Positions 32,979 to 51,143 are shown, numbered from the stretch's first letter. The stretch: DNA of 64,000 nt from Candidatus Yanofskybacteria bacterium RIFCSPLOWO2_02_FULL_44_18 (GCA_001794755.1 MGKT01000006.1:115045-179044); one strand, 5' to 3'. Numbers and translations: made by a program. The notes: generated by a model from the letters alone, not told the origin.

Positions 32979-33044
32979 CTTATTTCACATTGAAATTCTC
33001 ATCCTTTGCTGATATAATTTCAAGGTTTAGTTCTTGAAAATTAT

Positions 33045-33310
33045 TCCGCGGTAGCTCAATGGTAGAGCGGCGCCCTGTGAAAGAATCGCAGCTTTCAGAC
33101 GAAAGTCTGACTGAAACTTTTCGGGATATCGGTGAAGCCTTGACTGGTAATACCGAGGGAACCCCGACAATAAATGTCGGGGGCACCGTAGAGACTAGAT
33201 ACCGAAGATCCGTACGATTAAATTCACGGATAAGATATAGTCCACGCCGTAACGAAAGTTATGGATTATGTGTAAGGCGATGGTTCCAGGTTCGAGTCCT
33301 GGCCGCGGAG
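33045..33310 (+). tRNA. tRNA-Asn(GUU) interrupted by a group I intron in the anticodon loop (exons 33045-33078 and 33273-33310)
   Basis: 5' exon TCCGCGG-TA-GCTC-AATGGTA-GAGC-G-GCGCC-CTGT; 3' exon TAA-GGCGA-TGGTT-CCAGG-TTCGAGT-CCTGG-CCGCGGA-G. U1-A72 and G73 as in bacterial tRNA-Asn. Alternative splice junction would give Thr(UGU). Confidence 0.7.
33079..33272 (+). ncRNA. Group I self-splicing intron (compact, about 194 nt, no ORF)
   Basis: Core elements GTAGAGACTAGA (R-like) and AAGATATAGTCC (S, exact consensus); candidate IGS GCAG pairing exon CTGT with U.G; ends in G. Confidence 0.7.
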
Positions 33311-33321
33311 CAGACATTTAC

Positions 33322-33350
33322 AAAATACCACTCGAGTGGTATTTTGTTTC
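33322..33350 (+). terminator. Rho-independent terminator after tRNA
   Basis: ataccactcgagtggtat hairpin followed by tttgtttctt. Confidence 0.6.
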
Positions 33351-33372
33351 TTATCGAGAGAAGGAGTTATCA

Positions 33373-33684
33373 ATGTCCGAATGTAAAATTATCAATTCGG
33401 TCTTTCTTGGGCACCAGCTCGAGACAACAGGTATTGAAATAAGTGTAGGCGTAGGCCGTGTAATAGGAAGCGCCACAAAAGTGATCCGCATTGGTCTTCC
33501 CATGATTTCGATTCTGACAGCCGAAAGCACTCCCCAAATTGCCAAGATTGATCCTGGCGCCGAGGACGCATTTCTGGCAGCAGCCGACACTTTACTGAAA
33601 GGCGGCACGGAGTTTTACACTGTACTTCGTCCAGACTGGGCACTGGCGGCATTAAGCTGGAAAGCCGTGCCAACATATGCTTAG
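33373..33684 (+). CDS. Hypothetical protein (about 103 aa), GC-richer than surroundings
   Basis: Strong RBS gagagaaggag 7 nt before ATG; same frame as track ORF 33268..33684 but starting after the tRNA. Confidence 0.4.
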   Translation: MSECKIINSVFLGHQLETTGIEISVGVGRVIGSATKVIRIGLPMISILTAESTPQIAKIDPGAEDAFLAAADTLLKGGTEFYTVLRPDWALAALSWKAVPTYA

Positions 33685-51068: not shown

Positions 51069-51143
51069 TGGAGCCGCCTCCCAGATTTGCACTGGGGGTC
51101 TTCGCTTTACGAAAGCGCTGCTTTACTACTAAGCTAAGGCGGC
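51069..51143 (-). tRNA. tRNA-Thr(CGU), encoded CCA, atypical T-loop (G55)
   Basis: Reverse strand GCCGCCT-TA-GCTT-AGTAGTA-AAGC-A-GCGCT-TTCGTAA-AGCGA-AGACC-CCCAG-TGCAAAT-CTGGG-AGGCGGC-T-CCA. Confidence 0.55.

Follow-up and report, generated by a model that had tools for sequence, protein, structure and literature searches.

Group I introns in the tRNA genes of Patescibacteria have been described by Nakagawa et al. (mSystems 2026, PMC13011429; preprint 10.1101/2025.07.03.662931, July 2025), who analyzed 95 complete genomes and found introns between positions 35 and 36 of 15 tRNA-Asn(GUU) and 3 tRNA-Asp(GUC) genes. In the same work, bacterial/Patescibacteria tRNA introns are given lengths of 184 to 894 nt, 4 of the 15 tRNA-Asn introns carry an HNH endonuclease ORF, and covariance models assign 25 of 28 introns at 35/36, together with nearly all Patescibacteria tRNA introns, to subgroup IA, with none of the Patescibacteria introns in IC (PMC13011429). 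Two of them, the 196-nt intron of a tRNA-Asp(GUC) gene (GCA_001029755.1) and the 234-nt intron of a tRNA-Asn(GUU) gene (GCA_016700035.1), were spliced in vitro at 35/36 and the ligated exons were sequenced; an omega-G to C mutant, in which exon ligation was blocked, served as negative control (PMC13011429). According to Nakagawa et al. (PMC13011429), the class had been mapped computationally earlier by Williams 2020 (10.1101/2020.01.27.920355), under the name 'Asn.4Ug'.

The window studied here, by which we mean the whole 64-kb stretch of DNA that was analyzed, very probably holds a gene of this kind at 33045-33310 (+ strand, as for all features below unless stated otherwise): a single-gene tRNA-Asn(GUU) unit with its own promoter and terminator, in whose anticodon loop a compact group I ribozyme, devoid of an endonuclease gene, separates U35 from U36. 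The two tRNA halves, the insert and the core motifs that the initial annotation had described are all present. The 5' exon (33045-33078, tRNA positions 1-35) comprises the acceptor strand TCCGCGG, a GCTC-AATGGTA-GAGC D-arm, the anticodon stem strand GCGCC and C32 U33 G34 U35. The 3' exon (33273-33310, positions 36-73) continues with U36 A37 A38, GGCGA, the variable loop TGGTT, a CCAGG-TTCGAGT-CCTGG T-arm, CCGCGGA and G73. Joined, the two form a clean cloverleaf, with a 194-nt insert (33079-33272) between them, and ARAGORN calls a 73-nt tRNA-Asn(gtt) once the exons are spliced in silico at 33078|33273. The acceptor end, U1-A72/G73, is that of Asn hosts, and the acceptor is identical to that of the published Paceibacteria tRNA-Asn. 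One mismatch, G27·A43 (33070/33280), is located at the top of the anticodon stem. It recurs in two relatives, L043 and L059, whose tRNA-Asn exons are 100% identical to those of the window, and is therefore a feature of the lineage rather than damage. CCA is not encoded (33311-33313): G73 is followed by GCAG, unlike the tRNA-Thr(CGU) gene of the window, which does encode CCA (…GGCU-CCA; 51069-51071, - strand). At least part of the tRNA set must therefore receive its 3' end from a CCA-adding enzyme.

The gene appears to form an independent transcription unit, bracketed by a near-consensus promoter and a terminator hairpin. The putative promoter, sigma-70-like, reads TTGAAA-17 nt-TATAAT with an extended -10 TG (32990-33018; 11 of 12 consensus matches) and lies 27 nt upstream of tRNA position 1. 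The candidate intrinsic terminator (33320-33347), again recognized by its match to consensus, lies 10 nt past the tRNA and consists of a 12-pair hairpin with a T-rich tail behind it. Upstream are genes for RNase J and for a class I (Trp/Tyr-type) tRNA synthetase. An exact-protein look-up matched the RNase J; the synthetase, searched from its TTG start, gave no match, as the gene on record has a later start (323 aa). When the flanking proteins were compared by tblastn with the 120 listed intron loci (see below), no match was obtained, so that gene order around the tRNA-Asn is not conserved. The proteins of the window and those of the Patescibacteria metagenome-assembled genome (MAG) intron loci share about 35 to 70% identity, which makes it likely that the window comes from a member of Patescibacteria. 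The window, this locus included, is 100% identical to contigs of independent ENA metagenome assemblies. In one of these assemblies (ERZ28563591) an 85-aa gene has been called over the intron (L122, 6988-7242), and elsewhere gene callers leave the stretch empty; such calls arise because the RNA gene is not recognized. The six-frame ORFs that cross the intron in the window, of 127 aa (33059-33442, + strand) and 68 aa (32980-33186, - strand), are likewise artefacts, as the initial annotation had held. Downstream, the genuine coding sequence probably begins with the ATG at 33374, the start chosen in L121 (103 aa).

The insert has the full architecture of a group I intron: it is 194 nt long, has no ORF, begins with G (33079) and ends with the omega-G at 33272, and the 5' exon ends in U, as noted previously. 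P1 (33075-33091) is formed by the strand CUGU|GA, which runs across the exon/intron boundary (33075-33080), and the internal guide UCGCAG (33086-33091; TCGCAG in the DNA), with a wobble between U35 (33078) and G33088. It is followed by the P2 hairpin UCAGAC-GAAA-GUCUGA (33095-33110), and by the 5' strand of P3, UUUCGG (33119-33124), which pairs with CCGAAG (33202-33207) in a pseudoknot with P7. P4 (33129-33134 with 33151-33156), J4/5 (AA) and a trimmed P5 (33137-33139 with 33146-33148, 6-nt loop) occupy 33129-33156; P6 (GG/CC) and P6a (CCCCGACA/UGUCGGGG) occupy 33157-33187. The 5' strand of P7, G-(A bulge)-GACUA (33191-33197), lies within the R-like element GTAGAGACTAGA (33188-33199), and its 3' strand, preceded by J8/7 (AAGAUA-UAGUCC), within the S-like element AAGATATAGTCC (33232-33243), so that both motifs are where they had been reported. 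P8 is the hairpin AUCCGU...ACGGAU (33208-33231). P9.0 (ACG 33244-33246 with UGU 33269-33271) encloses P9, CCGUAAC-GAAA-GUUAUGG (33247-33264), and is followed directly by the omega-G, the whole covering 33244-33272. L2 and L9 are both GAAA tetraloops. Within P7, the pair G33193-C33242, next to the bulged A33192 in the hand-drawn and the computed fold, is presumed to bind guanosine. There is no extra helix between P7 and P3', nor between P3' and P8, and no core helix contains a disrupted pair. A P10, in which the P1 loop would pair with the 3' exon (UAAGG), was sought as well, and at most one pair, nothing convincing, was found; we assume that the exons are aligned by the anticodon stem in its place.

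Several results support this structure. All 59 pairs of the hand-drawn P1-P9 and P9.0, with the P3/P7 pseudoknot, are standard (59/59). An unconstrained, pseudoknot-free minimum free energy (MFE) fold of the 194 nt returns P2, P4, P5, P6, P6a, P7 with its bulged A, P8 and P9, and the MFE is unusually low (z=-4.9; 0 of 200 shuffled sequences fold as well). The 64 kb of the window contain a single copy of the 16-nt P7 motif. The covariance search proposed along with the initial annotation gives a significant match to Rfam Intron_gpI (RF00028; 50.5 bits, E=7e-10, model positions 1-253), which spans 33069-33264 and thus takes in 10 nt of the 5' exon and stops 8 nt before the omega-G. The gathering score of this model being 50, the match is borderline, 0.5 bit over threshold, and this counts against the group I reading. 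However, a family covariance model (R1) built in a leave-one-out manner from 29 related Asn-hosted introns, window excluded, matches the window end to end over 33070-33280 with 189.4 bits (E about 1e-56), as its sole match in the 64 kb, and the borderline Rfam score is therefore no longer a worry. The ends of the Rfam match were also considered as splice sites and rejected, the in-silico spliced product being an unfoldable molecule of 81 nt.

To collect relatives, the P7/J8-7 core motif was used to scan 185,579 species-representative genomes, which yielded at least 120 loci (those listed are L001-L120), spread over at least as many species genomes. Nearly all of the latter are MAGs of Patescibacteria, with Paceibacterota, Parcubacteria-group lineages, Gracilibacteria, Peregrinibacteria and Doudnabacteria among them. 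By blastn, the closest among the matches listed is L048, with 85% identity to the window, and L043 and L059 are 80% identical. Counting that of the window, 90 family members were parsed among the matches listed; every one has a terminal G, nearly always as part of GUG. For the analysis of covariation, 34 Asn-hosted introns from the matches listed were aligned with that of the window (MAFFT, 35 sequences) and pairs were counted on the hand-drawn structure. Standard pairing is observed in 89.1% of cells, versus 34 to 41% when the 3' partners are slid by 1 to 3 columns; 32 pairs have changed on both sides, and none of 500 shuffles reaches the observed covariation score. Changes on both sides affect 6 of 6 pairs in P2, 4 of 6 in P3 (where 99.5% of cells are paired), 5 of 6 in P8 and 6 of 7 in P9. 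P6 is invariant, and P6a, of variable length, is paired in 65% of cells. The outer A-U and C-G pairs of P9.0 are kept in all 35 introns. P7 is invariant too, which says nothing on covariation since the relatives were selected by their P7 motif. In P1, the U35•G wobble and the U33-A pair are both found in 35 of 35, and the guide varies in step with the first intron base (GC in 17, CG in 8, AU in 7 and UG in 3). The fold from P1 to P9 and the P3-P7 pseudoknot, which the initial annotation had proposed as checks, thus form in full, and covariation backs the core.

Among the parsed listed loci, the hosts are tRNA-Asp(GUC), tRNA-Asn(GUU) and tRNA-Tyr(GUA), and the insertion is always at 35/36, after C32-U33-G34-U35. 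Hence three of the four tRNAs with G34-U35 host the core among the matches listed, and His is missing. Odd calls made by ARAGORN at L089 and L090 had raised the suspicion of a tRNA-His(GUG) host; both proved on inspection to be tRNA-Asn, and no such host is present among the 120 loci listed. All have the exon end CUGU, to which the GCAG guide, itself invariant, corresponds; this suggests a spread between Asp, Asn and Tyr tRNAs by guide-sequence matching. Two further observations concern subsets of these loci. In 14 of them (L001, L003, L013, L019, L047, L056, L063, L074, L083, L087, L101, L103, L105 and L114) the intron-bearing tRNA-Asp has an atypical T-arm, with a GUGGG/CCCAU or GAGGG/CCCUU stem and a 7-nt loop GUCAGCA instead of UUCGAAU, and ARAGORN fails to fold these genes, intron mode included. 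In eight tRNA-Asn introns (L014, L020, L032, L041, L053, L058, L086 and L117) the P1 loop contains an ORF whose end, a C-x-N-C-H-type motif, lies immediately before the guide; judging from this motif, these ORFs would agree with the HNH homing endonucleases of PMC13011429.

How does the window intron compare with those already described? The nearest listed member of the Nakagawa et al. set is the 205-nt intron of the Paceibacteria genome GCA_030583765.1, an obvious homologue. With the Patescibacteria tRNA-Asn introns at 35/36, the window intron has in common the host tRNA, the TCCGCGG/CCGCGGA-G acceptor, the site after C-U-G-U, the GCAG guide, the P2 and P9 tetraloop hairpins, the GUG tail and the ARAGORN miscall as Thr(UGU) at 33/34, as well as the core strings CCGTAGAGACTAGATACC and AAGATATAGTCCACGCC, shared with GCA_030583765.1. 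It differs from the latter by its P5 (12 nt versus about 29 nt) and its total length (194 versus 205 nt), and from 4 of the 15 published Asn introns by having no HNH ORF. The exact window sequence had no match in the part of the supplementary tables of PMC13011429 that was examined. The two introns spliced in vitro likewise sit at 35/36 and obey the U35•G/omega-G rule. The Asp intron of GCA_001029755.1, in a different host tRNA, has the same compact P1-P2-P3-P4/5/6-P7-P3'-P8-P7'-P9-tail build without an extra helix between P7 and P3', as we read its sequence. In contrast, the Saccharimonadia Asn intron of GCA_016700035.1 has an extra P7-P3' hairpin and a GGTTCAGAGACTAGAG-type core, where the window has CCGTAGAGACTAGATACC, and thus belongs to a different structural sub-lineage.

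The Azoarcus tRNA-Ile and Agrobacterium tRNA-Arg group I introns adjoin the anticodon and are small, self-splicing and ORF-less. The classical introns of cyanobacterial tRNA-Leu(UAA) (34/35) and of tRNA-fMet (33/34) share with that of the window a small size without ORF, a place in the anticodon loop, GAAA in L2 and L9, and a very similar P7/J8-7 core (GUAGAGACUA..., AGAUAUAGUC). However, classical introns lie at 33/34, 34/35 or 36/37 in tRNA-fMet, tRNA-Leu and tRNA-Arg, whereas that of the window lies at 35/36 in a tRNA-Asn, and it falls outside their class. Loosely gapped global identity to published introns is not discriminating (68 to 77%, with even the Nostoc IC3 tRNA-Leu intron at 71%) and was left unused as evidence. 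From its insertion site in a G34-U35 tRNA and its homology in sequence and structure, we assign the window intron to the Patescibacteria-type 35/36 class. This class, described and spliced in vitro in 2025-2026, is not new, and the window intron is one more ordinary member of it.

Its only individual trait is the trimmed P5. The initial annotation had placed a length of 194 nt at the lower size limit of group I introns, and this does not hold: introns of 184, 185, 186, 188 and 192 nt exist among the matches listed, where the window intron is the seventh shortest of 90 family members, and the published range starts at the same 184 nt. In contrast, the P5 segment, GCC-UUGACU-GGU (33137-33148; 12 nt, 3 bp and a 6-nt loop), is the shortest of the 87 measured among the matches listed (median 27 nt), and is devoid of the CUAA-type motif found in 52 of these 87. 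Given that the closest listed relative, L048, has a longer P5 (GCCUUUCCGCCAGCUGGCGGAUGGU), the trimming looks like a recent deletion, as far as this sequence comparison goes. A short P5 without the CUAA-type motif might weaken the tertiary docking of the GAAA loop of L9.

Three other readings of the locus have to be weighed, of which one concerns the splice site. The sequence TGTG is present at both junctions, so that two cuts, after U33 and after U35, satisfy the requirement for a U at the end of the exon and a G at the end of the intron (G33270 or G33272). The first would place the intron two bases upstream, at 33/34, and make the gene a tRNA-Thr(UGU), and this is how ARAGORN reads it: no call is made by default, and its intron mode (-i) returns tRNA-Thr(tgt) i(33,194), a failure of tRNA finders that had been anticipated. 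However, the P1 pair at U33 is the Watson-Crick U33-A in 35 of 35 Asn-hosted introns and the U•G that defines the splice site is at U35 in the same 35, and the P9.0 pairs that place the terminal G fit G33272. Moreover, all 39 intron-less tRNA-Thr genes from the listed loci and the window, including 10 true Thr(UGU), have a G1-C72/U73 acceptor, against U1-A72/G73 here, and none of these genes exceeds 73% identity to the spliced window tRNA. The identical miscall by ARAGORN/tFind of tRNA-Asn introns as Thr(UGU) at 33/34 is documented, and was refuted by the sequenced spliced products of a homologue (PMC13011429). The Thr reading is thus effectively refuted, and we leave it almost no probability. 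Because of the invariant U35•G wobble, the positioning of G33272 by P9.0 and the U1-A72/G73 acceptor, the splice site is settled as 35/36, with anticodon GUU and tRNA-Asn as host, in agreement with the preference for Asn over Thr expressed in the initial annotation.

The other two readings concern activity. The intron could be genuine and yet not splice autonomously, if the trimming of P5 has cost it a tertiary contact and splicing in vivo requires help from a protein (chaperone or cofactor) or an unusually high Mg2+ concentration. The exceptional shortness of P5 relative to the listed median, the missing CUAA-type motif, the longer P5 kept by L048 and the failure to draw a clear P10 all point in this direction. 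Small group I ribozymes, however, tolerate the loss of peripheral contacts. All elements of the catalytic core are intact here and the family model matches end to end, short P5 segments (13 to 18 nt) are present in other members among the matches listed, and the compact 196-nt tRNA-Asp intron splices protein-free (PMC13011429). We consider a loss of autonomous splicing very unlikely. It could also be that the locus is a decaying pseudogene whose intron no longer splices, Asn being decoded by another gene: the window represents 64 kb of the genome, so that a second tRNA-Asn gene may exist elsewhere, and the anticodon stem contains the G27·A43 mismatch. However, this mismatch is shared by L043 and L059, whose exons are identical to those of the window, whereas their introns are only 75% identical with pairing kept, a sign that tRNA and ribozyme alike are under selection. 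[quoted passage not shown] Decay appears extremely improbable.

The reading that we retain, a tRNA-Asn(GUU) gene split by an active ribozyme, implies the following course of splicing. In the precursor, the guide UCGCAG would pair with C32-U33-G34-U35 and the two bases that open the intron, giving P1, in which U35 is held in the U•G wobble. Next, exogenous guanosine held by the P7 G-C pair would attack after U35. The terminal G33272, placed by P9.0, would take over the guanosine site, and the freed 3'-OH of U35 would attack after G33272, ligating U35 to U36 and producing the anticodon loop C-U-G-U-U-A-A. Across the junction, the ligated tRNA would read ...CCCUGUUAAGG..., and, as CCA is not encoded, it would be added after splicing. 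The exons, the complete core helices and their covariation, the homology to the Patescibacteria family and the splice-site position are features of the window locus itself. That its intron catalyzes these steps without protein we infer from textbook group I chemistry and from the in vitro splicing of 35/36 homologues, namely the 196-nt Asp intron, of the same compact build, and the 234-nt Asn intron, of a different sub-lineage.

More speculatively, the intron-bearing gene could be the sole tRNA-Asn of this reduced genome, in which case all decoding of Asn would depend on a guanosine-dependent ribozyme and splicing might act as a growth-state checkpoint on translation, and the P5-minimized ribozyme would splice without the usual L9-P5 contact. 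A regulatory role of this type for tRNA introns has been floated (PMC13011429); for the window locus we regard the whole of this proposal as unlikely.

The window intron adds a compact example to a described and experimentally validated family, and changes no open question. Its trimmed P5 is possibly of minor interest for the engineering of minimal group I ribozymes. The practical meaning concerns annotation: the tRNA-Asn is missed by default finders and mislabeled as tRNA-Thr(UGU) by intron-aware ones, and spurious ORFs are called over the intron. As a consequence, the genome would seem to be without tRNA-Asn, and its apparent completeness would be lowered.
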